A program made the position numbers and the translations under genes. The notes below the pieces were generated by a model, which searched no databases, had not been told where the DNA came from, and saw only the letters and a program-made list of their open reading frames with translations. From positions 1 to 64,000 of the IMG/VR virus record IMGVR_UViG_3300010366_000011: a stretch of DNA of 64,000 nucleotides. One strand, given 5' to 3'. The stretch comes from a virus. Shown here in pieces: positions 10,479-58,094 of this stretch; position 1 is the first letter of the stretch; every line of letters begins with the position of its first letter.

Positions 10479-11312
10479 TTAACTCTCCCCTCGCCCCAGC
10501 CAGTCGACCCGCAGGGATGGTTCCTGCGGGTCGCTCCATATCCGGGCGAAGGCGCCCTCGCTGCGGAGCTGGCCGAGGGTGGTGATTCGGAACGGCATCC
10601 GCCGGTCATCGCGCGCCCAGTACGCCATGATGCGCTCCGCCCGATCTCTCGAAGCGCCGGGCCAGTCCTCGTCGGCGGCGTCGACCACGAACAGCACGAA
10701 GGGCCATCCCCGTGGAAAGCGGTGAGCCCACAGCCGCGGATCATCGCGGACGTCGGCGTACTGGCGGAGCTTCTCGGCGAGGCGCCCCGGACTGTAGGTG
10801 GCCCGGTCAACCTCGAGCAGCGCCGTGGCGAAGCCGACCTGGCCAGACCCTGTTACCACCGTGTAGCGGATCAGCGCATCGGCAATTACCCTATTTCTCC
10901 GCAGTGGGATCTCGTGGTCCCATCCGTGAACCCCGAAGTCGTCCCCGCGCTGTCGAGCGGATTCCAGCAGGGAAATCCCTACTTCGTTCACCGCCCAGGT
11001 GTGCCGAGCGAGGCGCAGGCCCTTCGTGCTGGGGGCGAATGGCAGGCGCCCGTCGCCGTCGAGCTGGCGCAGGCCGGCCAGTGTGCAGCTCCATACCTTC
11101 GGCCCCGAGCGCACCATCTTCCGGCCGGTGATGAGTCCCCGTCGCTCGAGATGAGCCAGGGGTTTGCTCACGGCAGCTCCCCTGCCGGCTTTCGTGTTCG
11201 GCAGATGCATCCGGCGGACCTGCTCGGAGTCCAGGTAGCGGTGCCAGCCGATCGAGGTCAGGATCCGGGCTGCCGTGTCGGGCAGCGGGGTGAGGTCAGG
11301 CATTGCTGACAT
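10479..11312 (-). CDS. Replication-relaxation family relaxase
   Basis: N-terminal wHTH (HRYLDSEQVRRMH), ARHTWAVNE His motif, ADA..LLEVDRAT PD-(D/E)xK-like core; downstream of the coupling protein; start could be 11303. Confidence 0.85.
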   Translation of the reverse strand: MSAMPDLTPLPDTAARILTSIGWHRYLDSEQVRRMHLPNTKAGRGAAVSKPLAHLERRGLITGRKMVRSGPKVWSCTLAGLRQLDGDGRLPFAPSTKGLRLARHTWAVNEVGISLLESARQRGDDFGVHGWDHEIPLRRNRVIADALIRYTVVTGSGQVGFATALLEVDRATYSPGRLAEKLRQYADVRDDPRLWAHRFPRGWPFVLFVVDAADEDWPGASRDRAERIMAYWARDDRRMPFRITTLGQLRSEGAFARIWSDPQEPSLRVDWLGRGES

Positions 11313-11583
11313 CCCTGCGGCCGGCGCCGAGCGCTGCCCGGTAATTGTGCTCGAGCGCCAGCCAAAAGCGGGCGGAGGGAAAAATCGGTATGCGGGCGAG
11401 CCCCTCCGCGTCGGTCTCGGTGATTGGCTCCCCTGCGAGGATCGCCGCCAACCGTTCCGGTCCAAGGCCAGTAAGTCTCTCGATCGCCCGGCTGGGAAGA
11501 TGCAGGTCCGCGATGGCTTCTGCGAGCGTGAGCCCCGGTCGGATACACCAGTCGGGCTCGAAGGAGTAGTGAGATGCGCTCAC
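11296..11583 (-). CDS. HigA/VapI-like HTH protein
   Basis: FEPDWCIRPGLTLAE..ITETDAEGLA..SARFWLALEHNY. Confidence 0.75.
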   Translation of the reverse strand: MSASHYSFEPDWCIRPGLTLAEAIADLHLPSRAIERLTGLGPERLAAILAGEPITETDAEGLARIPIFPSARFWLALEHNYRAALGAGRRDVSNA

Positions 11584-14081
11584 AGGTCCACCACCTGGAG
11601 GCCGCCGTCCTTTGGCGCTTTGCCGCTGGGGGTCTCGCCGAGCGCCAGAAGGATATCGTCGTCCAGGGTGTCAAGCGCCGCGACCGTGTCCGAGGCCAGG
11701 CGGTAGCGAGGGTCTCCGGCGATCGTGGCCTCGAGGGCTCCGGGGTTGCGAGGGTAGAGGGTGTGCGGCTCGAGCGGCTGGACCTGGAATGCAGGGGTTC
11801 GGTGGCTGTCATGGATCACCGAAGTCAGGAAGGTGTACTTCGCCGCGTCCATGAGGTCGGCGGCTCCGGCGCCCTGCCATTCCCTGGCGATCACCGCCGC
11901 TGCGTCGTGGGAGACGGCGGTTGACGCCACGGACGATCCGTTGGTGAAGATGGCCTCGAGCGTGCCCGGCTTAAGCTTGATCGGGCTCTGGGCGAGGATG
12001 TCGGCCCGGATACCGTACTTGCCCTGCTCCTGGAGGGCGACTGAGAGGTCTGGCCCGTCATAGGTCGGGGCCTCGTCAAAAACCTCTAAGAACCGGGGGC
12101 AGCGAATGGCGCGCTCGGCGGCCGGTGTGTCGGCTCTCGATGAGCCGCCCATCAGCAGACCACGGACGAACAGCGCTGTCGGCAGCACGTCCTGGCCGTC
12201 GCCCTTGCGGGCGTTCGAGAACAGCATGACCGTGCGGCTGTCCATGGCCTTGCGGTAGTCGAACGTGGAGGGCCCGCCCAGGAAGGCGGCGGTGGGCACG
12301 TTGGCCCGCAGCCGGCTGATCAAAAAGGTCACGGTCAGTGGAGCGTCCTTCGGCAGCCGGGGGAACTCGTTTTCCCACCAGTCCCGGATGCTGCGGGGAA
12401 GGTGTCGCATCACCGCCTTGCGCCAGTCCTCGTCGGAGACGAGCGTGGGGATCTGAAAGAACGTGGGCACCACCGGCGAGCCCGCATCGGCGAGCGCCCG
12501 GGACAGGGCGACGAGCGCCTGACCGCAGGCGGTGATGATGGCGGTGGCGCGTGGGGCGAAGCTAGCGGACCACTTTGTGGCGGCCTGGAAAGCGGAGACC
12601 ACCGCGGCCATGGCAGCGTTGGCCTCCTGCGGGCTCGAGCACCCGGCGTCGAATGGATTCCAGCAGGGCAGCCACAGGTCTTCCCACTGCCGGCCGAGAT
12701 TGATCATGAGCGCCCGGCCGGGGAAGCACTCGCCGAAGGGCTCGAGGGCACCGATGGCATCGCCTGCGGGGTCCACGAATGCACCGCCTAGACCCATGCC
12801 CCAGGGCGGGTCGGCCACGAACGACAGGAACGTGGTCAGCTCGTTGCTAGTTTTCCCCCAGCGCGTCCTGCCGAAGGTTGCCCCGAAGAAGAACTCATCC
12901 CAGGGTGTGCCGACCGGCTCGGCGTACCCGTCGACGCGTCCCAGCGGACGAACGCCGGGGCCAAGCGGGAGCAGGCCGCGCGGCGGCGGCGCGGCGGCAC
13001 CGGAGCGGCGAAGGTCGGCGTGCCTGTTCTTGGCGGTGGGGGGCTTAAGGAGCCCGGCGACCTCGGTGGCTGACACCCGCGGGGGGCGGTGGGACCGGAA
13101 TATCGTGGTGGCGCCCGGGAAGATGCCGTCCTCGAACCGGGTGTCGAAGCCGGCACGCATCAGCGGCCAGTCGGCGGTGGGGCGTCCCAGGAAGGCTCGG
13201 GGCTCGAACCAGTTACCGCCATCCGGCTGGGCCCACTGCCGTAACGGCGCGCCGGTGACGGCGGCTACCAACGCGCGTGAGCGGGCGCGCGAGGCCGAGG
13301 CAGCTCGGGCGAGCACCTGCACGTGGAACAGAGGCGGCGGCGTGCCCTTGGCTGGGCCTGCAGCTGCACGCGATCGCGCGGGAGCCTGTGGAGTGACTGT
13401 GGTTGGTGTTCGTGCCGCGTGGGCCCCGAGCGGCTGGGAGAACTGCCGCCAGGCAGCTCCCCAGTCGCGTGCCGCGTGCTGAGTGGGTTCGGCCAGGGCG
13501 TCTTCACGCTCGAGCCGAACCGCGGCATGGCGCTTGTGGGAGAGCGCCATGAGGTCAAAGCAGATCTGTAGATCCTCACCGTCGGCCACGAGCGCGAAGA
13601 CCTTGGCAAAGGCGGTGAGCGGATCCGGGTCAAGTCCCACCGCGGCAAGAGCAGCGCCGTCGGGGCGGGCCAGCACCATCTCGTGCCGGGCGACGTAGCG
13701 CGCGATCGTGTGTAAATCCTCCGGGGGTTCGGGTACCCGCACGGAGAGCCCCGCGGGCAGATGCGGGCGGAGAGCGGCCAGCAGATCCGCTGGTGCGGAG
13801 AGCCGGTAGCCCATGCGCCCGGGGGGGATGGAGACAAGCGCGATGCGGACGCTGTCCGCAGCCCTGCTGGCGCGGGGCCCGGGGCGTCGCGTCGCCGCGA
13901 TGGCAGAGGCGAGACGGGCCAGCGTCTCGCCGTCGGGGTCGAACGCCCGAGAGGGGATCAGGTCGACCCCCTCTCTCAGTCCGGCGCGGGAGCGGATCAG
14001 CGCACGCTGGAGGCTGACGGAGCCCATGGCTCCGGCTGCGAGGGCCCCGGCGGCAAGACCGGGAAGCTCTGCCCCGATCAT
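11580..14081 (-). CDS. VirD4/TraD-like type IV coupling ATPase
   Basis: N-terminal TM, GRTRWGKT Walker A, FVDPAGD, WNPFD, VFDEA Walker B, QGKYG..LAQ. Confidence 0.85.
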   Translation of the reverse strand: MIGAELPGLAAGALAAGAMGSVSLQRALIRSRAGLREGVDLIPSRAFDPDGETLARLASAIAATRRPGPRASRAADSVRIALVSIPPGRMGYRLSAPADLLAALRPHLPAGLSVRVPEPPEDLHTIARYVARHEMVLARPDGAALAAVGLDPDPLTAFAKVFALVADGEDLQICFDLMALSHKRHAAVRLEREDALAEPTQHAARDWGAAWRQFSQPLGAHAARTPTTVTPQAPARSRAAAGPAKGTPPPLFHVQVLARAASASRARSRALVAAVTGAPLRQWAQPDGGNWFEPRAFLGRPTADWPLMRAGFDTRFEDGIFPGATTIFRSHRPPRVSATEVAGLLKPPTAKNRHADLRRSGAAAPPPRGLLPLGPGVRPLGRVDGYAEPVGTPWDEFFFGATFGRTRWGKTSNELTTFLSFVADPPWGMGLGGAFVDPAGDAIGALEPFGECFPGRALMINLGRQWEDLWLPCWNPFDAGCSSPQEANAAMAAVVSAFQAATKWSASFAPRATAIITACGQALVALSRALADAGSPVVPTFFQIPTLVSDEDWRKAVMRHLPRSIRDWWENEFPRLPKDAPLTVTFLISRLRANVPTAAFLGGPSTFDYRKAMDSRTVMLFSNARKGDGQDVLPTALFVRGLLMGGSSRADTPAAERAIRCPRFLEVFDEAPTYDGPDLSVALQEQGKYGIRADILAQSPIKLKPGTLEAIFTNGSSVASTAVSHDAAAVIAREWQGAGAADLMDAAKYTFLTSVIHDSHRTPAFQVQPLEPHTLYPRNPGALEATIAGDPRYRLASDTVAALDTLDDDILLALGETPSGKAPKDGGLQVVDL

Positions 14082-14165: not shown

Positions 14166-14216
14166 ACTGTAACATCGACATAACGGAGATGTCTACTAGC
14201 CGACTTGTAGACAACA
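14166..14216 (-). promoter_or_regulatory. Promoter of the coupling protein/relaxase operon with operator
   Basis: TAGACA-N18-TACAGT; ACTTGTAGACAACA at 14203-14216. Confidence 0.65.
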
Positions 14217-14302: not shown

Positions 14303-14872
14303 TCACGGCTGAGCCTGCGCCTGGAGAATGCCACGGTAGACCTTGAGAAGATCAGCACCGGGCGGGTCGCCGTAGTTGCACTCGCACCACGGGCTCTCGC
14401 CGATGGCCTGGATCTGGGCCTCCGGGAGAAGCCCGAAGGAGGCGATCACGCCCACATAAAGCTTGCCTGTCAGGAGACTGGCGATGGCAGCGACTCCCTC
14501 CGCCGGGGTGGCATAGACCTGCCAGTCCCGGCCGGCCAGCGTCATGCAGGGCGGATGGGTGCAGGCGATGAACAGGTAGTTGTTGGCAGGCTGGCCCGGT
14601 CCGCCGCCGTTTTCCACCTTGAACCAGGCCCGGCAGACGTTGAGGTCGATCCCCGGCTGGCGAATCTGGGCGGTAGCGGTGACAAGGGCCTCGCATCCAG
14701 CCTCCTGGCTGGCGGGCACGGCCTGAGTGGGCACGGCTGGGGACACTGCTACCGCCGGCACCTGATCGGCCGCTACGGCGCCCGTGGTGGTCCCGCTGAA
14801 CATGGAGACGAAGGCCAGCAGGGCCATGCCTGCCGTCAAGGCCAGAGCGAAGAGTGCCGCTGCCCACTTCAT
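14303..14872 (-). CDS. Secreted glucosaminidase/lysozyme-like peptidoglycan hydrolase (VirB1 role)
   Basis: Signal/TM; AWFKVENG..NNYLFI..WQVYATPAEG..LL..Y..IGESPW pattern; position within tra operon. Confidence 0.65.
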   Translation of the reverse strand: MKWAAALFALALTAGMALLAFVSMFSGTTTGAVAADQVPAVAVSPAVPTQAVPASQEAGCEALVTATAQIRQPGIDLNVCRAWFKVENGGGPGQPANNYLFIACTHPPCMTLAGRDWQVYATPAEGVAAIASLLTGKLYVGVIASFGLLPEAQIQAIGESPWCECNYGDPPGADLLKVYRGILQAQAQP

Positions 14873-16956
14873 GGCTTCGCTCGCTGGCGTCGGGCCGACC
14901 GCAGCGCCTCAAGGTCTGCCAGGGCCTTATTGGCAGCCAGGTCCCGGACCCTACCTTGCACCCGGGCATTGAACGCTGCCCGCGCCTCGTCCTGATGAAC
15001 GGCAGCACTCTCGAATGCTGCAGCTCCCTGAGCCTGGCGGGCGCGCTGGGCGGCGATTTCGGCAAGGCCCTCGCGGATCTTGCGAGCACGGTCCTCGCTG
15101 TCCGCGAAGCGGCGGGAAGTTTCGGGCATCCCCACGGCGTGGTGCTGAAGGGGTGACACGAGCCGGCCTCGCACGTCGGCCAAGCGCTGGCGAGCGTCCT
15201 CGATGCGATTCTGGATCGGCACCGTCCCGGCGATGGCGAAGATGTTTCCGTAGGCGCCGAGCGCCTGCACTCCCCGCTTGCCCGCCTTGCCGGCGACAAC
15301 CGCCGCCGCCGCCACCGGAGGAAGACCCTTCTTCACCGCCGTCATCGTCGCCGCCCCGACGCGTCCAGGGAGCTTGTGAGCGAAGCGCTGGGCAGCTCCG
15401 GCAGCCGAGATGCCGAGCACCGTCTTTCCGACGCGATGGCCCTTGCCCGCTGCCGCGGTGTAGCCACCTCCCGACCCCAGGCTGCCGAGCTTGGCTCCGA
15501 GCGATGCCGAGGCTGCGGCGCCGGCAGCCAGGAAGTGCTTCTTGGCCACGAAGGCGCCCACAGTCACCGTGCCCAAGAATACCAACTTGACGGCGGCCGG
15601 GTCGTTCTGAGTTTGGATGAGACCTTGGGAGAAGAGCATCACAAAGAAGACCAGGAGGGCGCTACAGGCCAGGATAGCTCCGGCGGCCTTTGCCGCCGAT
15701 GCCGTCCACTTCCAGATCGCCGTGTGACGGGGGGCGAGCCCGAGGGCAGCGGCGATCGGCATTGCCACGATCAGGAACACGCCCCAGAGCTGGGCACCCA
15801 CAACCGTGATGGCGATTCCGACAAGCAGGATCATCACCAGGAAACTCAGGAGGACGAAAAACCAGGACCACATCCAGCGATCACCGTTGGCGGGGTCGGC
15901 GTTCATGTCGGCGTACTTCTTGCACTCGGGCTGGGTGGCCATGATCGACCGGGGGTAGTTGTCGTTGCCCCATGGGCCGCTGAGGATGATGGCATCGCGG
16001 ATCGCGGCACACTTCCCGGTCAGGATCTCGCCCCACTGGAGCTGGTCGAAGGGCTTGTCGATCAGGGCTTCGGCGATGCTCTTGTTGAGAGGGCCGAGGC
16101 GGACAGCAAACTCCGGGTGGTCGAAGGAGTTGGCCGCTGGCTGGGGATTGGCCAGGCCCTGGGTGGGATCGGTCGACGCCGAGAGGATCTGTCCACTCAC
16201 GTCGCTCACCGTTGAGTAGGCGCCTCGCAGGTACCCGGCGGGGTTGGCCAGCAGGACGCCCATGACCATGAAGATCGCGTACGTCACCGCCAGCTCTCCG
16301 GCGGCCTTCGTCCCCTTGCCCCGAAAAAGCAGGATCGCCACGGCGACACCGGTGGCGAGGAGAGCGTAGTAGCCGAGCCCCAGCGGGCCGACCAGATGAG
16401 TGGTGAACGCATGCGCGGCGTCGGCTGCCGGACCGGCGAGGCGCGCAGCGAAGCCGAAGGAAAACGCCCACGCCACGGCGAACAGTCCGAACCGGATCAT
16501 CAGCATGTGAATCGACCAACCCGACGTCATGATCGTGCCCTGGAACCTCCGAGTAGCGTCGGTGGGGTTCGAGTCGTCATATCCCAGGCCGTAGGCGCTC
16601 GGGGGGAAGCGGGCTCCCACGTCGCCTGGGATCATCTCGCCGCCGAGGTCGAGGATCGGTTTCGGCTGGCTGAACTCATGGAGCTTGAGGCAGATGTCCA
16701 GGCCGCTCGGGTCGTGAATGTTGTCGTAACAGACTCCGCCCGGCATGGTCATGTGGGGGTTGGCCTTGCAGATGTCGAGGCCATGGCCGGTGAGTCCGTC
16801 GCAGTTTCCTGTCGGCACGGTGACGGTTGGGGCCGGACTCGGTGGAGGCGTCTGGGCCCTCGCGGCGCTGGCGATGCCGAGCACGCCCGCTCCCGCAAGG
16901 GCGAGGCTGATCAGGCTGCGGGTGGCTATGCGCCCGGCGTGAAGACGGCCAGTCAC
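14869..16956 (-). CDS. VirB6/TcpH-like polytopic conjugation membrane protein
   Basis: GTG at 16956 overlapping the upstream stop; signal peptide, multiple TM helices, PFDQLQWG loop motif. Confidence 0.8.
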   Translation of the reverse strand: MTGRLHAGRIATRSLISLALAGAGVLGIASAARAQTPPPSPAPTVTVPTGNCDGLTGHGLDICKANPHMTMPGGVCYDNIHDPSGLDICLKLHEFSQPKPILDLGGEMIPGDVGARFPPSAYGLGYDDSNPTDATRRFQGTIMTSGWSIHMLMIRFGLFAVAWAFSFGFAARLAGPAADAAHAFTTHLVGPLGLGYYALLATGVAVAILLFRGKGTKAAGELAVTYAIFMVMGVLLANPAGYLRGAYSTVSDVSGQILSASTDPTQGLANPQPAANSFDHPEFAVRLGPLNKSIAEALIDKPFDQLQWGEILTGKCAAIRDAIILSGPWGNDNYPRSIMATQPECKKYADMNADPANGDRWMWSWFFVLLSFLVMILLVGIAITVVGAQLWGVFLIVAMPIAAALGLAPRHTAIWKWTASAAKAAGAILACSALLVFFVMLFSQGLIQTQNDPAAVKLVFLGTVTVGAFVAKKHFLAAGAAASASLGAKLGSLGSGGGYTAAAGKGHRVGKTVLGISAAGAAQRFAHKLPGRVGAATMTAVKKGLPPVAAAAVVAGKAGKRGVQALGAYGNIFAIAGTVPIQNRIEDARQRLADVRGRLVSPLQHHAVGMPETSRRFADSEDRARKIREGLAEIAAQRARQAQGAAAFESAAVHQDEARAAFNARVQGRVRDLAANKALADLEALRSARRQRAKP

Positions 16957-17510
16957 AACCCGCTCGCGACCCGTTCGATCCAGGTAATCACGGCCGTCGG
17001 GGACCAGTACCACACGGCTGTTGCCAAGGCGCCCGCAACCCACCAGCCGCGAACGAGAAGGGCAGCGATGACGGTCCGCCAGAAGGTCTTCCACGGGTGA
17101 CGCTTGCTGCGGTGGCCCCCGAACAAGAGGGCGTTCTCCATCCAGTTCACGCCCGGGGAGACCGGAATCAGGTTGTACCAGCGCTCGTGGCCGAGCGACC
17201 CGTACCCGAAGAGATGCTGCGGCTCCCGCTTCGTCGCCTTGCGCGACCCGGCTGCCCGGCATAGGGCGCCGGCAGCCTTCATGGCGGAGATGTAGGCGAT
17301 GGCCACCAGACAAACCGCTCGCAGCGCAAGCGGTATCCAAGATGCCCAGCCGGCCGCATGCAACACAAGCGGTCCGCCAGCGCCGAGCCATCCCAGCGAC
17401 CGCCACATGAAGAACGATCGGCGTACTTTCGCCCGGAACTTCGGCGTCCGCCGGTACTCGGCATAGGCTTGCTGAAGCTCGTCGAGAGTGGGTCTGGTAG
17501 CGACGCTCAC
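16953..17510 (-). CDS. Membrane protein in tra operon
   Basis: GTG at 17510 with GGAGG, GTGA overlap, hydrophobic segments. Confidence 0.7.
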   Translation of the reverse strand: MSVATRPTLDELQQAYAEYRRTPKFRAKVRRSFFMWRSLGWLGAGGPLVLHAAGWASWIPLALRAVCLVAIAYISAMKAAGALCRAAGSRKATKREPQHLFGYGSLGHERWYNLIPVSPGVNWMENALLFGGHRSKRHPWKTFWRTVIAALLVRGWWVAGALATAVWYWSPTAVITWIERVASGL

Positions 17511-18373
17511 CTCCACCCCCAGTGGTATCTGGCAGCGAAGAAGGCTGTTGCCAGGAAGGCGATGGCAATTACCCAGGGCACGGCAGCACGTCCCCCGCGG
17601 TGTGACCGCGGGGAGGTAGGCGCCTGGGCGTCGAAGGTCAGCGAGGTAGGCTTGCCCGATGTGGTCATCGAAGGCTGTGGGATCGGGTCCTGATGTACGG
17701 GTGATGGTGAAGGCGTTGGACCGACGGCCTCCGGCGAAGCTGCAGGCGACTGGGTCTGCGCTGACAGGACTGGGGGCGGCGTTTCTGTCGCTGGGGAACG
17801 GGTTGCAGAAGGCGTCGGCCGAGGCTGAGCTACAGGCACGGGCGAGGGTGCGGACCGAGCTGTCACTACCTTCGCCGGGATGGGGGCAGGCGCGCTCGCT
17901 GCAGGAATCGGCGCTGCAGGCGGCAGCTCGCTGGAGAAAGTCACGTCGATCGACGGAGTCCCGGTAGCTCCCTGGGGGAGCGGGCAGGTCACTGTGATCT
18001 TCCAGACCACCGGCGGCGTCATGTTGAGACTCCAGACGTAGGGAGTAGGCGCCCCGGCCCCGATGTGCTGGGAGTCCTGCTCGACACCGTTGCGATAGCG
18101 GATCGTGGCGCAGGCCGGACCCGCCCAGCTGGGATCCCAGACGTGTACCCACGGAGTCACGTAGACCCAAGATGGTCCGACGTGGCCATAGTCGAATACC
18201 GTGCCCGCGGTGATGACGTCGGCGGTCTGCTGGACCGGCGTGGGGTTGACCGTCATGCCCCAGGTGTAACCGCCATCGTTGGCATGAGCCGCGTCAGCCA
18301 ACGCGAAGGCCAGCACCAAAGCCGATGCCAGAACGAGCATCATGACCACGACACGGAGAATCTTCACATCCAT
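17507..18373 (-). CDS. Surface-exposed protein: signal peptide, beta-rich domain, Pro/Thr stalk, C-terminal TM anchor (putative adhesin)
   Basis: ATG at 18373 after GAGGAGG; AHA cleavage site; C-terminal hydrophobic helix with basic tail. Confidence 0.7.
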   Translation of the reverse strand: MDVKILRVVVMMLVLASALVLAFALADAAHANDGGYTWGMTVNPTPVQQTADVITAGTVFDYGHVGPSWVYVTPWVHVWDPSWAGPACATIRYRNGVEQDSQHIGAGAPTPYVWSLNMTPPVVWKITVTCPLPQGATGTPSIDVTFSSELPPAAPIPAASAPAPIPAKVVTARSAPSPVPVAQPRPTPSATRSPATETPPPVLSAQTQSPAASPEAVGPTPSPSPVHQDPIPQPSMTTSGKPTSLTFDAQAPTSPRSHRGGRAAVPWVIAIAFLATAFFAARYHWGWR

Positions 18374-20919
18374 CAGCAGACCTCCTCGAGCTGAGCTGGT
18401 CGGGTCATGCGGGCCGGATTGGTCTCGAAGGCTTCGGCATAGACGCCTTGCGGTGGCCGAACCCAGACCAGGCCCACCCGTCCCCGGGTATCGCGCATCA
18501 GGCATAGGGCCGGGTCCGGCGGGACACTGAGGTCCACCTCCTTGCGGCGCATGCCCTCCTCGAAGAGCCGGCGCAGATCCGGATCTGCCTCAAGGCCCAT
18601 CAGGGTCGCCGCCTCGTCCCCGGCGTTGCGGGGTTGGCCGAACAGGAAGCGGTATTCGAATTGGCTGGCGAGCTGTGGCGGCACATCGCCAGGGTGCTGG
18701 CTGAGGATCCAGATGCAGCCGTTCTCCTTGCGCCCCTTGCGGACCGCCTCGTCAATCAGGGCCTGGCCGGGCAGGGTGGCCGTGTAGTTGTGTGCCTCAT
18801 CCAGGATGGCCACGGCGAAACGGTTGGGGTCGAGCAGGATGAAAGCCCGCTGTACCGCTGCCACCGCGTAGAGGATGGCGAGCCCGTTCAGTTGCTCCGG
18901 CAGGAGGTTCCGGTTGAGGTTGTCCGAGAGCATGGCCTCCCGGCTGGGCAGGGCAAGATCGGGGGCGTGAAAAATCACGGCGTCGAGGCTGCCCAGGTCG
19001 AGCACGCGGCGGTTGGGGTCGAAGATCAGCGCGCCCAGCCATTGCCCGGAAGCTGGCCGGCGGGCGAAGGTGTTCAGGTGCCGGTACGCCTGGGAAGCTC
19101 CGGCCACGCCCCGGTCAGCCATGCCCTTCAGGATCTCGAGCGCCAGAGGCATGGACGGGGCCGGGTGGTCGACCGCAGCATCGATTGCCTCCTTCAGCGA
19201 CGTGCCCTCGTCGTCCTGGGGATTGGCGCCGGTGATCATCATCACGAAGCCGAGGGCGATGCGTCGGGCCGCCATGGGGTCCTTGGCGAAGACCCGCAGC
19301 GGATCGATCGACAGCGTCGGGTCCTCGGTGATCCGCACCACGTCGGTGCGGCCGTGCTGGACCTGCAGCCACCGGACCCACTCGCCGCCCGGCGTCAGGT
19401 CGATCCCACAGACCATCCCGCCCTGGTCGACCACGGCCGTGGCGAGGATCTTTGCCGTGACCGACTTGCCCTCGCCGCTGGCGCCGATGAACATGGCGCT
19501 GCCTGAGCGCCCCAGGCGCTGAGCTTCGGCCGGGTTGACCATTACCCGTCGGGAGTGCCCCGCCGTAGCGGACAGTCCGAACAGGGCGCCGGAGCGGTCG
19601 CCCAGGTCGAGCCCCAGGAACGCGCCGAGCTTCGCTGCGCCGTCGGGTAGCAGGTGCTGGCGGTACTCGGCCATCAGCAGCGAAGCCTGGCCCCGCAGCG
19701 AGCCCGGAAGCATGGAGACAAAGAGCGGGAGCTGGCCCCCGGTCGGCCGCTCGAGGCGCCAGTCGACCGGGGCGAAGGCGCCGCGTAGCTCCGCCGCCCG
19801 GCGCTCCGCCTCGGCCGCCGTCGGGCCGTAGACGCAGAAGACCACCGTGGCTCGCAGCTCGGGGTCCGAGGTCGCCTGCAGGTGATCCCGGAGTTCCTGG
19901 GTGTCGCCGATCGCCCGCGCCAGATCGGTCGGGTATTCGCCGGTGGCCTTGACCTCGGCCGCCCGCTCGTCGCCCTGCTGGACCAGGTGCTCAATACGGC
20001 GCTTCACGTCGGCGAAGGCACGCTCGTTCGGGGTGCTCACGATGCGGATCGCCCAGTCCACCGGGTAGCTCTCGCGGTCCACCCGAAGCAGCTCGGCAAT
20101 GCTGAACCACGAGGGTGTGCGGTGCAGCACCAGGAAGCTCTGGAAGCTCACGGTCTCGAAGGTGGTCACCTTCAGGTACCGGCGTGGCCGGCTCGGCAGG
20201 TAGCGGCTCCAGCCGGTTCGTACCCGGCCGCTGTCGTGCGGATCCCCGCCCTCCTTCATGATCGCCCGGTCCAGATCCTCGAGCAAGGGCCCGACTCCGG
20301 CGGCCTCGGCTTCGTCGGCCTCAAGGCTCTCCAGCTCGTTTGCGGGCTCGGGGTCCTGGCGGAGCGGCGGCTCGAGGAGCCCCCGGCGAAACGCCCGCTC
20401 CCACAGCCACATGGTCTCGGCCCGGGTCACCGGGGTCAGACTCAGATGCCGTCCCAGCGCAGCCCGGATCGAGCGGGCATCCGCGGTGGCGTGGTCCCGC
20501 TCCGCCGCGCTGGGCTCACCGATCCTCTGGGGTTTCACCCACCGACCCTTCTTGCCCGATGCCCCTGGTGGCTTCAGCTCCACGCAGATGTAGAACCGCC
20601 GGGTCCACGCCGGGTTGTTGCTCATGTAGTCGAAGGCTTCGAGTGCCGCCGCCTCCCAGGTCGGGTGGGTCTCGGGGTCGAGGTCGCCGAGCATCTGATC
20701 GTGGACCTCGACCGGGTCGTCCGGCGGTTGGATCGACAGGATCACCGATTCACCCTCAAGCACCAGGAGCGCCGCCCGGATGCTGTCGAGGGTCTCCTCC
20801 TGAAGATCAGCCGGGAGGTAGTGGAAGGTCTCGGGCTCGACCTGCCAGATCCCCCAGGGCGCTCCCGTAGGAAACCAGGCGATGTTGCCGACGATCCAGC
20901 GCGGCGTGTAGCGGCTCAT
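18373..20919 (-). CDS. virB4: VirB4-like conjugation ATPase (TcpF/ConE type)
   Basis: GASGEGKS Walker A, ILDEAH Walker B, RKGRKEN..LSQHPGD, LMRDTRGRVG; follows tcpE. Confidence 0.9.
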   Translation of the reverse strand: MSRYTPRWIVGNIAWFPTGAPWGIWQVEPETFHYLPADLQEETLDSIRAALLVLEGESVILSIQPPDDPVEVHDQMLGDLDPETHPTWEAAALEAFDYMSNNPAWTRRFYICVELKPPGASGKKGRWVKPQRIGEPSAAERDHATADARSIRAALGRHLSLTPVTRAETMWLWERAFRRGLLEPPLRQDPEPANELESLEADEAEAAGVGPLLEDLDRAIMKEGGDPHDSGRVRTGWSRYLPSRPRRYLKVTTFETVSFQSFLVLHRTPSWFSIAELLRVDRESYPVDWAIRIVSTPNERAFADVKRRIEHLVQQGDERAAEVKATGEYPTDLARAIGDTQELRDHLQATSDPELRATVVFCVYGPTAAEAERRAAELRGAFAPVDWRLERPTGGQLPLFVSMLPGSLRGQASLLMAEYRQHLLPDGAAKLGAFLGLDLGDRSGALFGLSATAGHSRRVMVNPAEAQRLGRSGSAMFIGASGEGKSVTAKILATAVVDQGGMVCGIDLTPGGEWVRWLQVQHGRTDVVRITEDPTLSIDPLRVFAKDPMAARRIALGFVMMITGANPQDDEGTSLKEAIDAAVDHPAPSMPLALEILKGMADRGVAGASQAYRHLNTFARRPASGQWLGALIFDPNRRVLDLGSLDAVIFHAPDLALPSREAMLSDNLNRNLLPEQLNGLAILYAVAAVQRAFILLDPNRFAVAILDEAHNYTATLPGQALIDEAVRKGRKENGCIWILSQHPGDVPPQLASQFEYRFLFGQPRNAGDEAATLMGLEADPDLRRLFEEGMRRKEVDLSVPPDPALCLMRDTRGRVGLVWVRPPQGVYAEAFETNPARMTRPAQLEEVC

Positions 20920-21293
20920 GGCCGTGCCCACCGGAGTCGGCGGTCAGCCTCAGTGGTCCATGCCTGCCGGTAGGGCTTGCCCTTGTAGAGCCCGCGCTTG
21001 GGGGAGAGGGCATAGCTGGCGTAGCCGATGATGGCTGAGATCGGCCCCCTGCCCTCCAGGCGGAAGTATCGGCTGGTCCATGCCAGCCCGACAGGGATGC
21101 CGAGAATGGCAGCCAGGTTCACCAGTCCTGGTCCCACCGCCCACAGGGGGCGGGTCACCAGGAGCACGATGCTGGCACCGATGAAGGTGCCGAGCTGGTA
21201 GAGGGTGACCGTAAACGGCATCACCCACCGGCCGATCTTGCCGAGCACCAGCGGGAAGCGCCGGGCCTCGGTCCAGTTACGTCCGGGCTCCAT
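20916..21293 (-). CDS. tcpE: TcpE-family (VirB3-like) conjugation membrane protein
   Basis: WTEARRFPLVLGKIGRW..TLYQLG, 2 TM, RLEGR; directly upstream of VirB4. Confidence 0.8.
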   Translation of the reverse strand: MEPGRNWTEARRFPLVLGKIGRWVMPFTVTLYQLGTFIGASIVLLVTRPLWAVGPGLVNLAAILGIPVGLAWTSRYFRLEGRGPISAIIGYASYALSPKRGLYKGKPYRQAWTTEADRRLRWARP

Positions 21294-21294
21294 G

Positions 21295-21615
21295 TCAGTT
21301 GCAAGCCGTAGGGGCGCCGAGGGGCGTGGAGGCTGCCGTGGCTCCGGCAGAAGTCAGCGTGTCCTGTGCCACCCCGCCCAAGCTGATGACCCCACTAAGG
21401 ATGGTGCCCCAGAAGATCAGGGCTGCCAGGAGGAACGCGCCGATGGTGGGGATCAGATTGCCTTTCGACTTGATCCAGGCATAGGCGGGGAAGGCGACGC
21501 AGGCGATGGTGATGGCCCCCTTCACCACCCACCAGAAATCGTTCTCCAAGTTCCCCGCCACGCAGTGGGCCGGAGAACCTGGAAGGGTGAGAGCAAGGTG
21601 CATCAGGAGCCTCAT
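21295..21615 (-). CDS. Small 2-TM pilin/VirB2-TcpD-like protein
   Basis: Hydrophobic hairpin; position upstream of tcpE. Confidence 0.6.
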   Translation of the reverse strand: MRLLMHLALTLPGSPAHCVAGNLENDFWWVVKGAITIACVAFPAYAWIKSKGNLIPTIGAFLLAALIFWGTILSGVISLGGVAQDTLTSAGATAASTPLGAPTACN

Positions 21616-46523: not shown

Positions 46524-48221
46524 ACTCATGTACTCCTGAACCGCGGTCCACTCCCATGCCGAGGGGATCTGCGAGTTCGGCACCGGGAGCGCCCACGTGA
46601 GGATCATGGCGTTGCCCGGCGGCATGTACGGGTGGACCCGGATGTCCACCATGCGCCTCGTGGGAGACGACTGGTTCGTAATCCCCGTCACGATGGCGCC
46701 GATCATGGCGTCGTTGGTCTGGCCGGCGGGGAACGTGATCCGGTAGCTCGAGCCCGACGGGTTGATCTTGATCAGGTCGCTGAGCTGCGACGAGTCACGT
46801 GCCGCCATCCACAGGTCTTCGGGGTCGGCGTATGTCTTCTCCCAGAGCTGCAGGAAGGCGTTCTGGAACTCGACGCCCGGGTTGCCGCTGGAGAGAGCGG
46901 CGTTCAGCCTGGTGTTGTACCCCCCCCGGGTACCATCGGAGACGATCGACATCATGCCGTCGCAGTCCGAGGCCGAGGCCGACGTGTCGCCACCGGTGGG
47001 CACCTTGGCCGTGGCCGTGAGCAGCGACGTCACACCACCTGCGCCGATGGTGAAGGTGTTCCAGCCGGTCCTGCCCTGAAGGGCCCTCGTGGCGTCGCCC
47101 GGGTCCGCGCCTCCGGCGTTGGCCAGGTTGGCATAGACGTTGTATCCCAGTGCTCCCTGGGCGTCGGTGCCGACCTTGACATCAATGACCTGGGTGACGC
47201 CGTTGGCGATGTTCACGGTGACGAGGGAAGACGGGACCGACTCGCCGAACTCGGCCTGGCTCGTGACCTTGATGTAGACGTTCGTGCCTCCGGAGCCGGA
47301 TCCGGTGATCCCGCCTTCCCCGGTGGCCGGGGCTCTCCCGGTACCGGTGACGGTCCCCGGAGCCGCAAGGGCACCCGAGCCACCGGAGTCCGTCGTGCGG
47401 CCGGCGAGGATCATGCGCTCGTCGGCGATCATGTGGGCGGTGAGCAGGACATATTGGCTCAACTGCCTGATGTCCTGGAATCCCTGGCCAGCGAATTGCG
47501 CCTCCCACGACACTTGATCCGACCAGGAGAATTGCTTGTAAGTTACTGTTTGGTCGTCGACAGTGTACGAAATCTTGGGTCCACGGATCAGGTAGAGGTT
47601 CTGCGCCGCACCCAAGTTGAAGTTGGTTTGGGTCACCTCGGTGATCCCGTGCCGTGTCGCCGCTCCGGCGGTGCCGATGCCCGAGCCCGTGAACCCGGTG
47701 ATCCGCTTGAACCGGCGCACCAGGCCCTGGCCGGGCTGGCGAGGCAGGCGATTCCGAAGAGGGGAGAAGGTGGGCACGATGTACTTGGCCGGAGCCTCAA
47801 GGTCGAATGGGACCAGGCCCGTGCCCAGAGGCGACGTGGTCGTGATGTCCTTCATGACCTCGGCCTGCGCCGCCCGGTACGCGGTGATCTGCGCCTGCAC
47901 GGATGCCAGAACCTCGGCACTGGTCCCCTTGAATATCTGGCCGATCAGGGGGTCCGAGGCGAACTGCGTGTAGATGTCTGCGGCGTTGGTCTTCTCGATC
48001 AGGCGTCCCTCGGCGAGGACCCGCCGCGTGCTGGGCTCGAGGTTCCAGCCGGTCTTCAGCCGGGTCTCTCCCGCCAGTGTGGAGCGGAACGAGTCGTCGA
48101 TTGCCGTCTTGAACGCCTCGAAGCGTGCTGCCAGGGCCCGTGGGTCGGGCCTACCCAGAGAGTCGTGCCCGTAGTTCTCTACGAGGTCGCCCCCCAGGTC
48201 CTTCTCCAGATTCACTCCCAT
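46524..48221 (-). CDS. Major capsid protein, exon 1 (566 aa; spliced product 609 aa)
   Basis: GLVPFDLEAPAK..PLRNRLPR..GQGFQDIRQLS..VHPYMPPGN; follows the protease gene. Confidence 0.9.
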
Positions 48222-51672: not shown

Positions 51673-52025
51673 ACCTGCCGGCGGTCTGCAGTTGCGGCTG
51701 GCCCGTCTCATTCGACGTCTGGGCACCTGACTTCGGCCAAGGTCCGTGGTCGGACCTCCGCCGTCAGTGCCCACTGTGCCAGCGATGGCTCAGGCTTCGG
51801 TGCCTATTCTCTCCGGCCGGTACGTTCACACTTGCTGTGGTGCTGCCGGCCGGAGTCCTTCGGGGCTTCGGGCACCTGACTACGCCTCCGCCATCGCTTC
51901 TTCGCTGGCAGGCGTCGAGTCGTCAGGTGCCGGGGGATTGGCCATCTCGGCCGATGCCAGAGCACAGCGGCAACCGGGGTGGACCGGCGGGTCTCCGTTG
52001 GGGAAGTCGTCGTCTATGGAGATGA
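51669..52025 (+). CDS. Zn-ribbon hypothetical protein (cassette gene 6)
   Basis: GTGA overlap; CSC..CPLC; 3' end overlaps the portal gene antisense. Confidence 0.4.
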   Translation: MNLPAVCSCGWPVSFDVWAPDFGQGPWSDLRRQCPLCQRWLRLRCLFSPAGTFTLAVVLPAGVLRGFGHLTTPPPSLLRWQASSRQVPGDWPSRPMPEHSGNRGGPAGLRWGSRRLWR

Positions 52026-54588
52026 CCCCGGTGTCCTCGTTCTCCTGACACTCCGGACAGACCAGATCGTCGTCCGCCGCCAGGAACCGCTGCGCCTCGA
52101 TCCCGCTGGCGGCGTACTCGTCTTGTGTGGCCACCGTCACCGCCCTGGCCGTCTCCGTGGTGGCGATCAACTCCGCCCGGGCTGGGTCATCCAGCAGGCC
52201 CCGGATGGCGTCGGCTACCACCGACATGGGATCTCCGTTGTCGATGCCGTCGGCCAGGGCCTGCGCCAGGTCGTCAAGGCGGTTGTCGGCAATGGAGCGG
52301 ATGTCCACAGCGGCGTCCGAGAGCATCCCGGCCAAGCCCCGAGACCCGTCACCTCCGAGCAGAGCCGCCTGAGCTCGCCAGTTGGTCAGCGTGTCTTCCG
52401 GTACCGCGTCGTCGCCGGCAAGGGCCGCCTGGGCACCTGCCGAGCCCGTCACGTACGCCTCCGACCGCAAGTCAACCATCAGCTCTACCCGGCGCGCCTC
52501 CGGCGTGAGGTTGGCAGAGAGGACGGTCTTGGCGTGCGCCCTGTTCGAGGGGTCCGCCGCCTTGCCCACCTGATTGGCGTAGGCCCGGACCGCTCCGGGG
52601 ATGTCACGGACCAGGTTGCGGAATGCCGTACGAACCTTCGTGGTGTACTTCCGGGCGACGGCATCACGTGCCGAGTGTAGCGGGCGCATCCTGCCCCGCT
52701 CCGAGGCTAAAGGGTCCTGGCTTACTCCCTTCACTGCGGCCATCGTGGCGAGGCGGGTGGCGTCCATGTCAAAGCTGGCTCCGATGTCATTCAGAATGCC
52801 GCCGACCTTCATCAGTGGGGACCCGAACTCGAATGGCCTCCATGTCCCGAGCTTGGCCCGCTTCGCCGCGAAGGTCAGGAATTTCTTCGCCTCCTCATCG
52901 GCGCTCGGAGCCCCTGGTGCTACCAGAGGCGTGGTCGGGGTCGGGGATGGCGCAGGCGACTGCGACCCTGGCTGAGGTGGCTTGGTGTCGGGAGGCACGC
53001 CAGGTGGTGTCGCATCCGGGAGCGCCGTCATGGACCCCCGGAGAGGCTGGATGGTGGCGCCGGCCACGATCATCGGCTCGTTGGCCTCCGGGATGTCGTC
53101 GAACACAGGTAGGCCCCGCTCAGCCCGGCGCTCGTTCACCGTCCACACGCCGTCGCGCTGCTCGGTGGAACGGGTCTTGGCGATGGCGTCCTCGTCCTCG
53201 TCCTCGATGCCCTCGAACTGGAAGGTGAGCAGGGGGTCCATGCCCACGTAGCGGATAGCGAGGTGGTTGATCCAACCTGTCATCCACAGGAGATAGGGGC
53301 GGATACCGCGGCGGTAGAGCGTGTCCTCCATCGACTCGGAGAAACCCTTGCCCCCCAGTCCTCCACGGGACGGCTCGAAGCCAAGCTCAATAGGCAGCAA
53401 GTCGAAGTAAAGGCAAATGAGCTTTATCAGGAACTCGTCAAAGAGGGGCGTGTACTTCTCCCCGAACTGGGGCATCGCGTCCGGCTTCATGCCCCGCGGT
53501 AGGATCCGGAGCCGGTGGCGCTCGGCTGTGTTGCCGGAGAGAAGCTCGTTGAGGATGGTCTCCCACTGCAAGGCCAGCTCCGGTGGCCAGTCGGCGTCGA
53601 CCAGGATCCACGCCTCCGGTTGCACCCCGGAGTTGTACTCGGCCCTGATCCACTCCTGGCGCTTCAGCCAGAGGTCCAGATCCGAGAGTACCTGCTCAAC
53701 AGGGCCGAACCCATAAGGTGTATCATTTCTCACTAACTTAGGGAAGTAGCCCATCTCGTCGGCTGCAAACTGCCCGTCGGCTCCGCCGCTGTCCTGGTAT
53801 TCGCCTCTGGGGAAGCCGTAGATGAACTGTTGGTACGCCGGTGCGGGTGCCTGCGGGCGATTACCACTCACGTCGAGCAACGGCTTGATTGTGGACCCGT
53901 CCACGCTCATCAATGAGTGCAAACCACCGTCCATGGTCCGCCACGGGTAGACGGTACAGGCATCGAAACGGAAGTGATCCTCAATGCACATCGATAGCCA
54001 GTCGGCGAACTGGAGGCCGCGGAGCCGGTCCGGCCACTGGAACCACCGGGTTACCCGGTCCACGTCGTCGGCGAGGTCAGTGGCGAGCTTCTGGCGGACG
54101 GCCCGCTGGTCCCCGTTGGCTTGCGCCATGGCGATCCGCCGGACTGCCACCTGGTTCGGGACGATGGCCCAGTCCAGATAGGCCAGCTCCTGCTTGCGGA
54201 TCTCGATCGCCCGCCGGATGATGCCGATGTCCGACGCCTGGCGCAGCACCCGCCACGGCACCGCCTGCGTCCCGACGCCCGGAAGGTTCCACGAGGGCGG
54301 GTACTCGCTGCGCCGAGGGTACGGGTGCCCATCGGGCGACGGCGGTGAGATGGGCGCCGGGATGACCGGGACGCCGGGGCCGAAGGCGTACTGCTGGCCG
54401 AAGTTGTCCCCTCGTGGCAGCGCCGCTGAGCCATCCGGCCTGGTGTGCAGGCCCGTGCCCATCTGCCCGCTTCCGACCGCGGCGAGCTGGCCCGGTGAGT
54501 ACTCGGCCACCTGAGAACCGGGCGGCAGAGTCAGACCCGCTTTCACCATGCGCTCGACCGTGGAACCGTCCAAGACGATGCGGCTCAC
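51880..54588 (-). CDS. Portal protein fused to a MuF-like minor head domain
   Basis: VDGSTIKPL..YQQ..TPYGFGPVEQ..VWTVNERRAERGL portal motifs; RAELIATTE..VCPEC..PPVHPGCRC MuF motifs. Confidence 0.92.
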   Translation of the reverse strand: MSRIVLDGSTVERMVKAGLTLPPGSQVAEYSPGQLAAVGSGQMGTGLHTRPDGSAALPRGDNFGQQYAFGPGVPVIPAPISPPSPDGHPYPRRSEYPPSWNLPGVGTQAVPWRVLRQASDIGIIRRAIEIRKQELAYLDWAIVPNQVAVRRIAMAQANGDQRAVRQKLATDLADDVDRVTRWFQWPDRLRGLQFADWLSMCIEDHFRFDACTVYPWRTMDGGLHSLMSVDGSTIKPLLDVSGNRPQAPAPAYQQFIYGFPRGEYQDSGGADGQFAADEMGYFPKLVRNDTPYGFGPVEQVLSDLDLWLKRQEWIRAEYNSGVQPEAWILVDADWPPELALQWETILNELLSGNTAERHRLRILPRGMKPDAMPQFGEKYTPLFDEFLIKLICLYFDLLPIELGFEPSRGGLGGKGFSESMEDTLYRRGIRPYLLWMTGWINHLAIRYVGMDPLLTFQFEGIEDEDEDAIAKTRSTEQRDGVWTVNERRAERGLPVFDDIPEANEPMIVAGATIQPLRGSMTALPDATPPGVPPDTKPPQPGSQSPAPSPTPTTPLVAPGAPSADEEAKKFLTFAAKRAKLGTWRPFEFGSPLMKVGGILNDIGASFDMDATRLATMAAVKGVSQDPLASERGRMRPLHSARDAVARKYTTKVRTAFRNLVRDIPGAVRAYANQVGKAADPSNRAHAKTVLSANLTPEARRVELMVDLRSEAYVTGSAGAQAALAGDDAVPEDTLTNWRAQAALLGGDGSRGLAGMLSDAAVDIRSIADNRLDDLAQALADGIDNGDPMSVVADAIRGLLDDPARAELIATTETARAVTVATQDEYAASGIEAQRFLAADDDLVCPECQENEDTGVISIDDDFPNGDPPVHPGCRCALASAEMANPPAPDDSTPASEEAMAEA

Positions 54589-56052: not shown

Positions 56053-56213
56053 CCGCGCCGGCCGGCCGCCGCACCACAAAGGTGCCGGTGCTGCTTGTCG
56101 GGATGCTGCAGGTCCCGCTTCACCTGCTTGGGCGTGGGGCGTCCCTTCCTCTCGCCGGGCCGGCACCGGTCGGGGACCGGAGTCGTTGCCATCCGATGCC
56201 CCAGACGCTTCAT
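56049..56213 (-). CDS. Small basic hypothetical protein
   Basis: AGGAGG RBS; overlaps terL stop. Confidence 0.45.
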   Translation of the reverse strand: MKRLGHRMATTPVPDRCRPGERKGRPTPKQVKRDLQHPDKQHRHLCGAAAGRRG

Positions 56214-57745
56214 GGCACTCCTCCTGCTGGATTCGGCGTGGATCGGTCCTCGATCGGCTTGCCGCACCACCGGCAGACACGAGCGCCGGCGATGTTCGGC
56301 TTCTCACAGTGCGGACACGGCGGGGCGGCAGATCGCATCCAGCCCTCCGTGGATGTCGGCACCAACACCGAGTAGGCACCCGAGCCGCCGTCGACCTGGT
56401 CGTCATGGGCCCCATGAGGGAAAACGTCATACTCCGCCAAGCAGTCCTCGTTCCAGGGCGCCTCAAGCATCTTGACATTACCCGCCTGCCACTGGGACGC
56501 AAGCGGATCCGCCCGCAGCACCTTGTCACCGCTGGAGGTCCGCCAGTTTACCGAGAAACCACCGAGCAGAGGCACCAGCGTCCCCGTGATGTAGAGCTCC
56601 CCCTCCGAACCTGGCTCCTGTTCGATCCAGACGGGGCACTCCCGGCCGTCCTGGATGGCCGTGTGACGCATCCGCTCCTGAAGGTCTTTGGCCCGCCACC
56701 GGCCCCGCCGGACATCGGCGATGAAAAGCTGGCCGTTCGGCGCCCGGCCGAGCTTGAACCCCACCGTCCAGTCCGGGTCCGACTTCTCCCGCTTCTTGCC
56801 GGCAGCCAGATCCCACCACCGGACGAAGCGACAGTCGGCCGGCAGCGCCGAGACGATCTCCACCGTCTCCCGGGGGAACATGCCGCCCTTGCGCGGCGAG
56901 GGCCGGCCCTGGTACTGCGCTGCGAACCAGTACGCTCCGCCCGGGGAGTCCCGGAGCTGGATCAGGTAGACCTTTTCGAACATCTCGACCCACAGGGGCT
57001 CGCCCTCGTCCCTGCCAAGCGGGTCATTCTCCTCGGCCAGCGCCGGGAGACGGACCTCGGAGAAACCGGCCTTGCGGATCAACTGGCCGCCGATGTCCTG
57101 CTCGTCCCATCGGGTCATGATAACCAGAACGGACGATATCTTGTGGAGCCGGGTCCGGCCGACGGCCAGCCACCAGTCCCAGTGCTTCCTCTGGACTACC
57201 TCTGACTGCGCCTCTTCGGCATTCTTGACCGGATCATCGATGATCAGCAGGTCGGCAGGCTTTCCGGTGACCGGGCCCCCGATGCCCGCCGTCCGCATAG
57301 CCCCCCGGCGGCCAGTGATCTGCCAGCGGTTGGCGGCGGAGGAGTCCGACCGGACGGACACGCCAAACACCGAGGGGCCGAATTCCTCGAGCACGTCGCG
57401 GGCCTTGCGACCCCACTCCGAGGCGAAGTCGGCTTCGTAGCTGGCCAGGATGACGCTGCGGTCGGGAAATCGTCCGAGATACCACGCTGGCCCGAAATGG
57501 GAGCATAGCGAGGACTTCCCATGCTGAGGCGGTACCGTCACCACCGCCCGGACCGGTTCGAAGGCCGCCCGGACGATCAGGTGGTTGACAAACTCAAGAT
57601 GTGGGGCCGGCCTCCACCAACCTCGGCTTGCCAGGATCGCCAGGGCCGCCGGGCTCGTCCTCGCCGCTGCTATCTGAGCTTCGTGCAGCGAGAGCGAGGA
57701 AGCGGACTCCGGCGTCCACGACGCGCGGGTCGTTCGTTGGCTCAA
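56210..57745 (-). CDS. terL: Terminase large subunit
   Basis: VPPQHGKS Walker A, LLIIDDPVK Walker B, MTRW, WDLA, FPHGAHDDQVD. Confidence 0.95.
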   Translation of the reverse strand: MSQRTTRASWTPESASSLSLHEAQIAAARTSPAALAILASRGWWRPAPHLEFVNHLIVRAAFEPVRAVVTVPPQHGKSSLCSHFGPAWYLGRFPDRSVILASYEADFASEWGRKARDVLEEFGPSVFGVSVRSDSSAANRWQITGRRGAMRTAGIGGPVTGKPADLLIIDDPVKNAEEAQSEVVQRKHWDWWLAVGRTRLHKISSVLVIMTRWDEQDIGGQLIRKAGFSEVRLPALAEENDPLGRDEGEPLWVEMFEKVYLIQLRDSPGGAYWFAAQYQGRPSPRKGGMFPRETVEIVSALPADCRFVRWWDLAAGKKREKSDPDWTVGFKLGRAPNGQLFIADVRRGRWRAKDLQERMRHTAIQDGRECPVWIEQEPGSEGELYITGTLVPLLGGFSVNWRTSSGDKVLRADPLASQWQAGNVKMLEAPWNEDCLAEYDVFPHGAHDDQVDGGSGAYSVLVPTSTEGWMRSAAPPCPHCEKPNIAGARVCRWCGKPIEDRSTPNPAGGVP

Positions 57746-58094
57746 ACGTCATCGCCTGCCGCACGTCCGCCGAGACGTCCAAATGGTCACGCCGGGCCCA
57801 CCGGTCGGGGAAGCGCCGTGCCAGAAACTCAGCCGCAGCTCGCCAGTCCTCCGGGATGGCCTGCTGCCACTGGGCCACCATCCTGACCTCAGCTCGGGCT
57901 TCCGCTTCGCGAATAGCGTCGCGAAAGGCTCGATACTGACCAGTGCGTTCCCGCTCTCCGCGCTCCATCCAGCGCCAGAAGGTGGCTCGGGAAATACCGG
58001 CGTACCCGGCCGCTGCCTCAAGGTAGTTTCCGCTGCCGACCGCCGTCGCAATCCGCTCCCGGACAGCGTCGGTGAGCTTGGATGGTCTTCCCAT
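57594..58094 (-). CDS. terS: Terminase small subunit (HTH)
   Basis: MGRPSKLT..AAGYAGISRATFWRW..DWRAAAEFLARRFPDRW; upstream of terL. Confidence 0.85.
   Translation of the reverse strand: MGRPSKLTDAVRERIATAVGSGNYLEAAAGYAGISRATFWRWMERGERERTGQYRAFRDAIREAEARAEVRMVAQWQQAIPEDWRAAAEFLARRFPDRWARRDHLDVSADVRQAMTFEPTNDPRVVDAGVRFLALAARSSDSSGEDEPGGPGDPGKPRLVEAGPTS

Follow-up and report, generated by a model that had tools for sequence, protein, structure and literature searches.

Bases 1-64000 (hereafter the window) of a single 93,037-bp contig, the IMG/VR virus record IMGVR_UViG_3300010366_000011, hold the virion genes of a tailed phage and, next to them, a set of conjugation (tra) genes. Comparison with two related viral genomes strongly supports the view that the two gene sets form a single phage replicon, in which the conjugation module is long-standing, and shows that this module is an old component of the phage genome, kept by selection, rather than a passenger. 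The contig comes from an uncultured phage of ~93 kb whose tail is long and non-contractile and which probably infects an actinobacterium. It represents a group of ~90-kb uncultured soil phages of high-GC bacteria that have a full-looking conjugation gene set.

The virion and lysis genes all lie on the minus strand, from 58.1 down to 22.9 kb, and are separated by one strong terminator from the tra module (positions of all features are given in Table 1). The module spans ~12 kb (21.9-10.5 kb) and consists of two operons placed between the lysis cassette and an early switch region, where temperate siphoviruses usually have int and attP. The first operon is tightly packed. Between it and the second, which encodes an ATPase and a Replic_Relax protein, is a 221-bp gap that has a promoter-like site of its own. 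An earlier note, made from the letters of this DNA, had described a complete late operon followed after one terminator by intact tra operons with no integrase at their borders. Our analysis agrees on each of these points: the virion, lysis and tra genes and the terminator were found intact, no frameshift was seen in any of these genes, and there is no integrase on the whole contig. Neither Phage_integrase nor Resolvase was found in any of the three viral genomes, and the tra block has no excision gene pair and no flanking repeat that we could find.

The age of the module can be judged from a second virus. A VirB4 profile retrieved the soil metagenome contig Ga0307469_10000040 and a profile of the second-operon ATPase retrieved IMG/VR 3300032180_000008; the two sequences overlap with 100% identity over 10,453 bp, and together they provide 62.4 kb of a virus with ~65% protein identity to the phage in the window. 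Gene order is common to both viruses and runs from the early genes through gene 1219, the divergent switch genes 7445/7976 and gene 10013 to the tra genes, MerR, the lysin and the tape measure. Given this collinearity, the tra block joins the backbone at the same two points in a genome ~35% different in protein sequence. Pairwise NG86 estimates of synonymous divergence (dS) are 0.69-1.13 for the tra genes and 0.6-1.5 for backbone genes, values near saturation that make the argument from equal divergence a coarse one. The corresponding ratios of nonsynonymous to synonymous divergence (dN/dS) are 0.21-0.50 and 0.13-0.61, and the value for the relaxase, 0.25, indicates purifying selection. These figures still rule out a recent arrival of the tra block and show that it is under purifying selection.

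In the second virus, the VirB4 gene (protein P0003; L006 11443-12818) has a 1.37-kb in-frame insert directly after the Walker A motif that matches LAGLIDADG_3 (E 2e-4) and is a probable intein. Its holin-like gene, the neighbour of that gene and a second MerR paralogue (L010 5479-7170) lie ~45 kb from the lysin, and thus the lysis cassette is split differently than in the window phage.

A compact tra block with its own regulators and promoters could also be the result of a recent insertion of an integrative and conjugative element (ICE) or plasmid into a phage, or of a cointegrate or tandem. Such insertions exist. A phage-database search returned Tn916, with int, xis and tetM, inside the Streptococcus (pneumococcal) prophage IPP61; phage-ICE tandems have been reported, by authors who call the structures not hybrid elements (PMC13651849); and there are the Escherichia coli cases discussed below (PMC10123127). 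In Tn916-IPP61 and the phage-ICE tandems, as in the window, conjugation and phage genes adjoin on one stretch of DNA. However, in those cases two elements have come together that are autonomous and have an integrase, an excisionase and recognisable borders each, whereas the module described here has no recombinase and no borders, shares an operator with the phage switch, and has diverged from its counterpart as much as the backbone has. Its composition is normal as well, with a tetranucleotide correlation of 0.979 between the tra block and the rest, compared with 0.962-0.989 for other windows. Relatives were checked for a separately inserted tra block with att ends, and none was seen; in the second virus the block is collinear. 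On the basis of the shared junctions, equal dS, normal composition and lack of a recombinase we rejected a recent ICE insertion. This explanation is largely refuted, and we regard it as very improbable.

Given that the contig is a metagenome assembly, it could in principle be a chimera of a phage and a conjugative element. Both junctions, however, recur in independent assemblies, since the diverged relative was recovered in two overlapping contigs, and a third, complete phage has the same tra core. In addition, tetranucleotide use is uniform and GC content is even along the contig at 63-70%. We rejected a chimera on the recurrence of the junctions in the second virus and of the core in the third, and find it barely credible. 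The suggestion of the earlier note that one replicon carries both gene sets is thus well supported by the collinear and equally diverged second virus and by the core in the third. In addition, the contig is a single virus record whose two ends fall in one tandem array.

The third virus, IMG/VR 3300036792_000096 (90,657 bp; CheckV 99%), differs from the window phage in TerL, which has 31-37% identity to terminases of Arthrobacter phages, and in the portal, but has tailspike and tape-measure segments in common with it. Its tra core comprises counterparts of the conserved membrane protein, VirB4, the VirB6 analogue, the hydrolase, the ATPase and the relaxase (identities in Table 1), with a regulator of the GntR type. 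A quick maximum-likelihood tree, with long branches and a midpoint root, places the viral ATPases and one Logan contig in a single group (SH-aLRT 100), separate from 37 further homologues. The same genome encodes a C5 cytosine methyltransferase with a Hint_2 domain (L015 533-3202), which is probably an intein.

Searches for further members returned little. Two other relatives are the proteins P0002, with 78% identity to VirB4, and P0014, with 76% identity to the ATPase. More distant ATPase homologues, with 31-37% identity, lie on contigs of 82-113 kb (P0031, P0043, P0046 and P0048). VirB4 and portal profiles found nothing in GTDB species genomes; neither an isolate host nor a prophage copy is known. 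Scans of IMG/VR with VirB4 queries found none, a wide ATPase profile returned only the two viruses already found, and a phage-database search with VirB4 returned only Tn916-type insertions in Streptococcus and Enterococcus records.

Judged by protein families, the tra gene set has homologues elsewhere that build the conjugation channel of monoderms, together with its ATPases and a MOBC relaxase. For VirB4 the best NCBIfam match is TcpF, although all NCBIfam scores of tra proteins are far under the equivalog cut-offs. The true start of the VirB6 analogue lies within the open reading frame (ORF) at 14869-17568. The cell-wall hydrolase appears glucosaminidase-like at the level of the predicted fold only, and we treat this as a lead. 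The family of the relaxase, PF13814, is the MobC profile of CONJscan (PMC5357655) and has been assigned a PD-(D/E)XK fold (PMC3424549). The 833-aa ATPase of the second operon has no Pfam or NCBIfam match, and sequence and profile searches against PDB chains were empty or spurious. Apart from the fold-level matches in Table 1, its AF2 model, of moderate quality (pLDDT 61), matched R388 TrwK/VirB4 with E 7e-5 and TrwB with a probability of 1.0 and a TM by target of 0.41. Given that it adjoins the relaxase, a coupling protein is its likely role.

The regulation of the module appears to connect it to the phage. One exact copy of the palindrome ACTTGTCGACAAGT is present in the window, at 7896-7909, between the divergent promoters of the early switch region, and copies with mismatches are found at the PadR gene and before both tra operons (Table 1). 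With up to two mismatches allowed, three sites were found compared with 0.12 expected, and in the second virus operator-like sites occur at the same three kinds of place. A second motif, CAAGGTAAA, has eight copies in the window compared with 0.04 expected. It is confined to early promoters, with zero copies in the tra block and the late operon, and ACTTGTCGACAAGT is likewise absent from the late operon. Given that the operator is shared with the switch at 7.9 kb only, and that neither motif occurs in the late operon, the tra genes look tied to the early switch and not to virion gene expression. The proposal of the earlier note that the tra genes are co-regulated with the virion genes was rejected for this reason. 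Most early and switch-region genes had no match in Pfam or PHROGs, and no repressor could be named. The early region also encodes a small HTH_17/excisionase-like DNA-binding protein (window 5110-5328, minus strand); there is no recombinase on the contig.

Several features of a tailed phage are present: both terminase subunits and a portal, with a tail tube and tape measure; no tail sheath gene was found. The late operon also holds genes for a Phage_gp49_66 protein, a protease/scaffold-like protein of 788 aa, a head-tail adaptor-like protein, a pectate-lyase-like tailspike, a large distal-tail protein and several small membrane proteins. The sole match of the capsid-like gene is a PHROGs family of unknown function (phrog_13692), and the gene follows the one for the protease/scaffold-like protein, as would suit a capsid gene. 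At its 3' end is a group I intron (46281-46541, minus strand; RF00028, 58.8 bits, E 3.5e-12), which is adjoined by a plus-strand ORF (45567-46103), relatives of which neighbour HNH-type genes in related contigs.

The replication genes are of the initiator/loader type, with a DnaA_C-domain protein and a helicase-loader-like protein. Together with the lack of an integrase and of any DNA polymerase seen on the contig, they could suggest a conjugative plasmid in which a phage-like particle system, of the gene-transfer-agent or tailocin type, has been domesticated, instead of an infectious phage. We consider this unlikely. The packaging, head, tail and lysis set is full and intact, and the third genome is 99% complete as a virus according to CheckV. 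Tail-tip genes vary between the relatives, as in phages under host-range selection, and typical phage features are present, including DNA methylases, Ro60, DUF5131, a group I intron in the capsid-like gene and HNH genes. Further, no ParA or ParB was found: ParB_N, AAA_31 and CbiA gave nothing above cut-off on the contig, and the third virus also lacks ParA.

Table 1. Features of the tra module, of the virion and lysis genes and of the operator copies, with positions in the window; percentages are identities to the counterparts in the second and third virus unless stated otherwise.
Feature	Position	Strand	Evidence	Second virus	Third virus
Terminase small subunit (terS)	57594-58094	-	phrog_4102 E 1e-30		
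Terminase large subunit (terL), start codon uncertain	56210-57745	-	Terminase_6N E 1.3e-11, Terminase_6C; 41% to a phage TerL		
Portal fused to Mu F-like head morphogenesis domain	51880-54588	-	Phage_portal, Phage_Mu_F; 78% orthologue in IMG/VR contig L004		
Capsid-like virion gene	46503-48221	-	phrog_13692 E 6.5e-81		
Tail tube	33445-34626	-	Phage_tube_2 E 4.8e-11		
Tape measure	29409-32204	-	phrog_1535; 45-51% segments in both relatives	45%	
GH25 endolysin	25085-26038	-	Glyco_hydro_25 E 2e-17	63%, adjoining the tra block	
Holin-like protein, 64 aa, two membrane helices	22870-23064	-	hydropathy	75%	
Bidirectional intrinsic terminator of the late operon and the convergent MerR gene	22732-22763	.	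14-bp stem, T run		
MerR-family regulator	22309-22719	+	MerR_1 E 1.2e-9	72%, same place	
PadR-like regulator, candidate reader of the palindromic operator (predicted binding)	21902-22192	-	PadR E 1.5e-6		
One-mismatch copy of ACTTGTCGACAAGT	22163-22176	.	PadR gene start/promoter		
Two-mismatch copy of ACTTGTCGACAAGT	21867-21880	.	over the -35 of the tra promoter		
Small HTH_17/excisionase-like DNA-binding protein, first gene of the tra operon	21700-21830	-			
Two-helix membrane protein (pilin-like/VirB2-like guess)	21295-21696	-	hydropathy; no family match	46%	
TcpE-family membrane protein	20916-21293	-	TcpE E 5.7e-9	57%	
VirB4-type conjugation ATPase (TcpF-like)	18373-20931	-	AAA_10 E 6.7e-34, TraC_F_IV; TcpF E 2.7e-26; Walker A at aa 483	66%	34%
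Surface protein	17507-18373	-	signal peptide, conserved 120-aa domain, proline-rich stalk, C-terminal anchor		
Conserved membrane protein of the tra core	16953-17510	-			37%, E 1e-24, beside VirB4
VirB6-analogue polytopic membrane protein	14869-16960	-	CD3337/EF1877 E 6.5e-14; 8 membrane helices	46%	29%
Secreted glucosaminidase-like cell-wall hydrolase (putative)	14303-14872	-	TM 0.55-0.60 to PF01832 clusters; signal peptide	55%	36%
Three-mismatch copy of ACTTGTCGACAAGT	near 14203-14216	.	before the ATPase operon		
833-aa VirD4/VirB4-superfamily ATPase	11580-14081	-	ESM Atlas 0.98; TM 0.71-0.78 to TrwB_AAD_bind/T4SS-DNA_transf clusters	70%	48%
MOBC-type (Replic_Relax) relaxase (predicted)	10479-11465	-	PF13814 E 9.6e-19	74%	36%

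How such a phage would use its tra genes can be sketched. We infer that the tra set transfers DNA by cell contact and that this DNA is the phage genome itself. In this scenario, the unpackaged phage genome would persist in the cell in a repressed plasmid-like or carrier state, in which the PadR-type repressor would hold both tra operons through the palindromic operator common to the early switch. On release, the MOBC relaxase would nick a putative origin of transfer (oriT), and the VirD4-like ATPase would pass the DNA to a channel of VirB4, VirB6 and TcpE, with the glucosaminidase-like hydrolase and the stalked surface protein aiding passage across the wall. Entry of the phage genome, or of other DNA, into a neighbouring cell would then not depend on the phage receptor, while the virion route would be kept for long-range spread.

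Two transfer routes, by virion and by mating, are plausible from the gene content. Whether the module does conjugate, and moves the phage genome via an unpackaged resident state with the virion route alongside, is in our judgement evenly balanced. In its widest form, which we put forward tentatively and would not ourselves bet on, the idea is that a tailed virus lineage swapped chromosomal integration for a built-in, repressor-controlled mating apparatus, such that the whole genome may move in capsids or through a type IV secretion system (T4SS) and escape a receptor-limited host range.

Alongside the coarseness of the dS comparison, several observations weigh against a phage that conjugates. 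The three viral genomes compared are all metagenome assemblies. The earlier note had relied on the triad of VirB4, coupling protein and relaxase; VirB4 and the MOBC relaxase are recognised by sequence family, but the VirD4 assignment stands at the fold level, and the fold cannot tell a coupling protein from a second VirB4-like ATPase. The 833-aa protein, moreover, has no membrane helix or anchor. Nothing resembling VirB8/TcpC was recognised, and inverted-repeat scans for oriT were unconvincing, yielding just one 10-nt inverted repeat (14190-14213) ahead of the ATPase operon. The tra block of the third virus lies away from the lysis genes. Searches of the contig found no partition gene, plasmid replication gene, integrase, recognisable repressor or maintenance function; without recognisable maintenance or lysogeny genes, the phage may be strictly lytic and have little time for mating.

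Much of this would equally suit a genuine, conserved tra module with a task other than moving the phage genome. Such a module might send proteins or other DNA into adjacent cells, mobilise co-resident elements, prepare neighbouring cells or exclude them during infection, or serve in DNA uptake or release; the lack of an oriT, of maintenance genes for a resident donor state, of a VirB8-like part and of an anchor on the ATPase, and the different position of the block in the third phage, all fit this possibility. On the other side, a MOBC relaxase stands beside the ATPase in all three viruses, with 36-74% identity, and points to a DNA substrate, and the relaxase is under purifying selection. We think such a repurposed role doubtful, but since a strictly lytic life cycle would leave little time for mating, we allow it a substantial share of the probability.

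The record is typed 'linear', and CheckV estimates the completeness of the 93,037-bp contig at 89%. Both contig ends lie in a tandem array of a 24-bp unit (ACCGTGGCGGAGCCCCATGCCCGC; at least 29 units), which covers window 1-309 (11.7 units, contig start) and contig 92141-93037 (at least 17 units, contig end). The array lies inside a minus-strand ORF, where it encodes an 8-residue protein repeat. Given that both ends fall in one array, the assembly broke within the repeat and did not close, and the molecule is thus most likely circular or circularly permuted.

Beyond the switch and late regions, the contig encodes a heavy anti-restriction load, with at least four N6/N4 DNA methyltransferase genes and genes for DUF5131 and DUF2303 at contig 63377-73159 and 87883-88626. 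A Ro60 gene (TROVE and vWA domains) lies at contig 67743-69623. Inside or beside it, ARAGORN found a tRNA-Gln-like element (69520-69597), which fits a Y RNA/YrlA-type partner.

Among known systems, the module most resembles the Tcp system of Clostridium perfringens pCW3 and the monoderm T4SS of the ICEBs1/Tn916 type (MPF-FATA/FA). It has in common with them TcpE, a VirB4 closest to TcpF, a VirB6 analogue of the CD3337/EF1877 type, a putative secreted wall hydrolase, a VirD4-superfamily ATPase, a relaxase and compact coupled operons. Unlike these systems, the phage module lies inside a tailed phage genome and has no recognisable TcpC/VirB8, its relaxase is MOBC instead of TcpM/MOBT, its hydrolase is glucosaminidase-like instead of NlpC/P60, and its ATPase is without membrane helices. 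The nearest cellular homologues of VirB4, with ~31% identity over the full length, are in T4SS-like clusters of Streptomyces and other actinobacterial plasmids, and Actinomycetota account for most homologues of the 833-aa ATPase. However, the plasmids that bear those clusters are large and lack virion genes, and the viral ATPases group separately. The phage portal had no match on actinobacterial plasmids.

Phage-plasmids of the P1, N15 and SSU5 types, and sporadic 'conjugative phage-plasmids' of E. coli, are alike in combining virion and transfer genes on one extrachromosomal-looking replicon without an integrase. Known phage-plasmids, however, carry replication and partition genes and move as virions, whereas neither par nor rep is recognisable here. 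Six E. coli phage-plasmids with conjugation genes, of ~175 kb, have been read as cointegrates or artefacts (PMC10123127), and p1002-1 was described as a fusion plasmid (bioRxiv 10.1101/2025.03.14.643293). Unlike these cases, the phage module is small, has co-diverged with its genome, and is kept in three genomes of ~90 kb.

We found no description in the published literature of a lineage of tailed phages that has a T4SS built into its genome, and the few published elements with both gene sets were read as cointegrates, tandems or artefacts. Virion transfer and conjugation have been treated as alternative strategies with differing costs, host ranges and size limits (2025 plasmid mobility review, PMC12282955), and the arrangement described here contradicts this usual either/or view. 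It raises the question of what role a T4SS would have for a phage without recognisable lysogeny genes. If a phage lineage keeps a selected conjugation module, then one element can use both routes, and this bears on the limits of phage host range, on how viral and plasmid classifiers handle such genomes, and on gene flow in soil actinobacteria.

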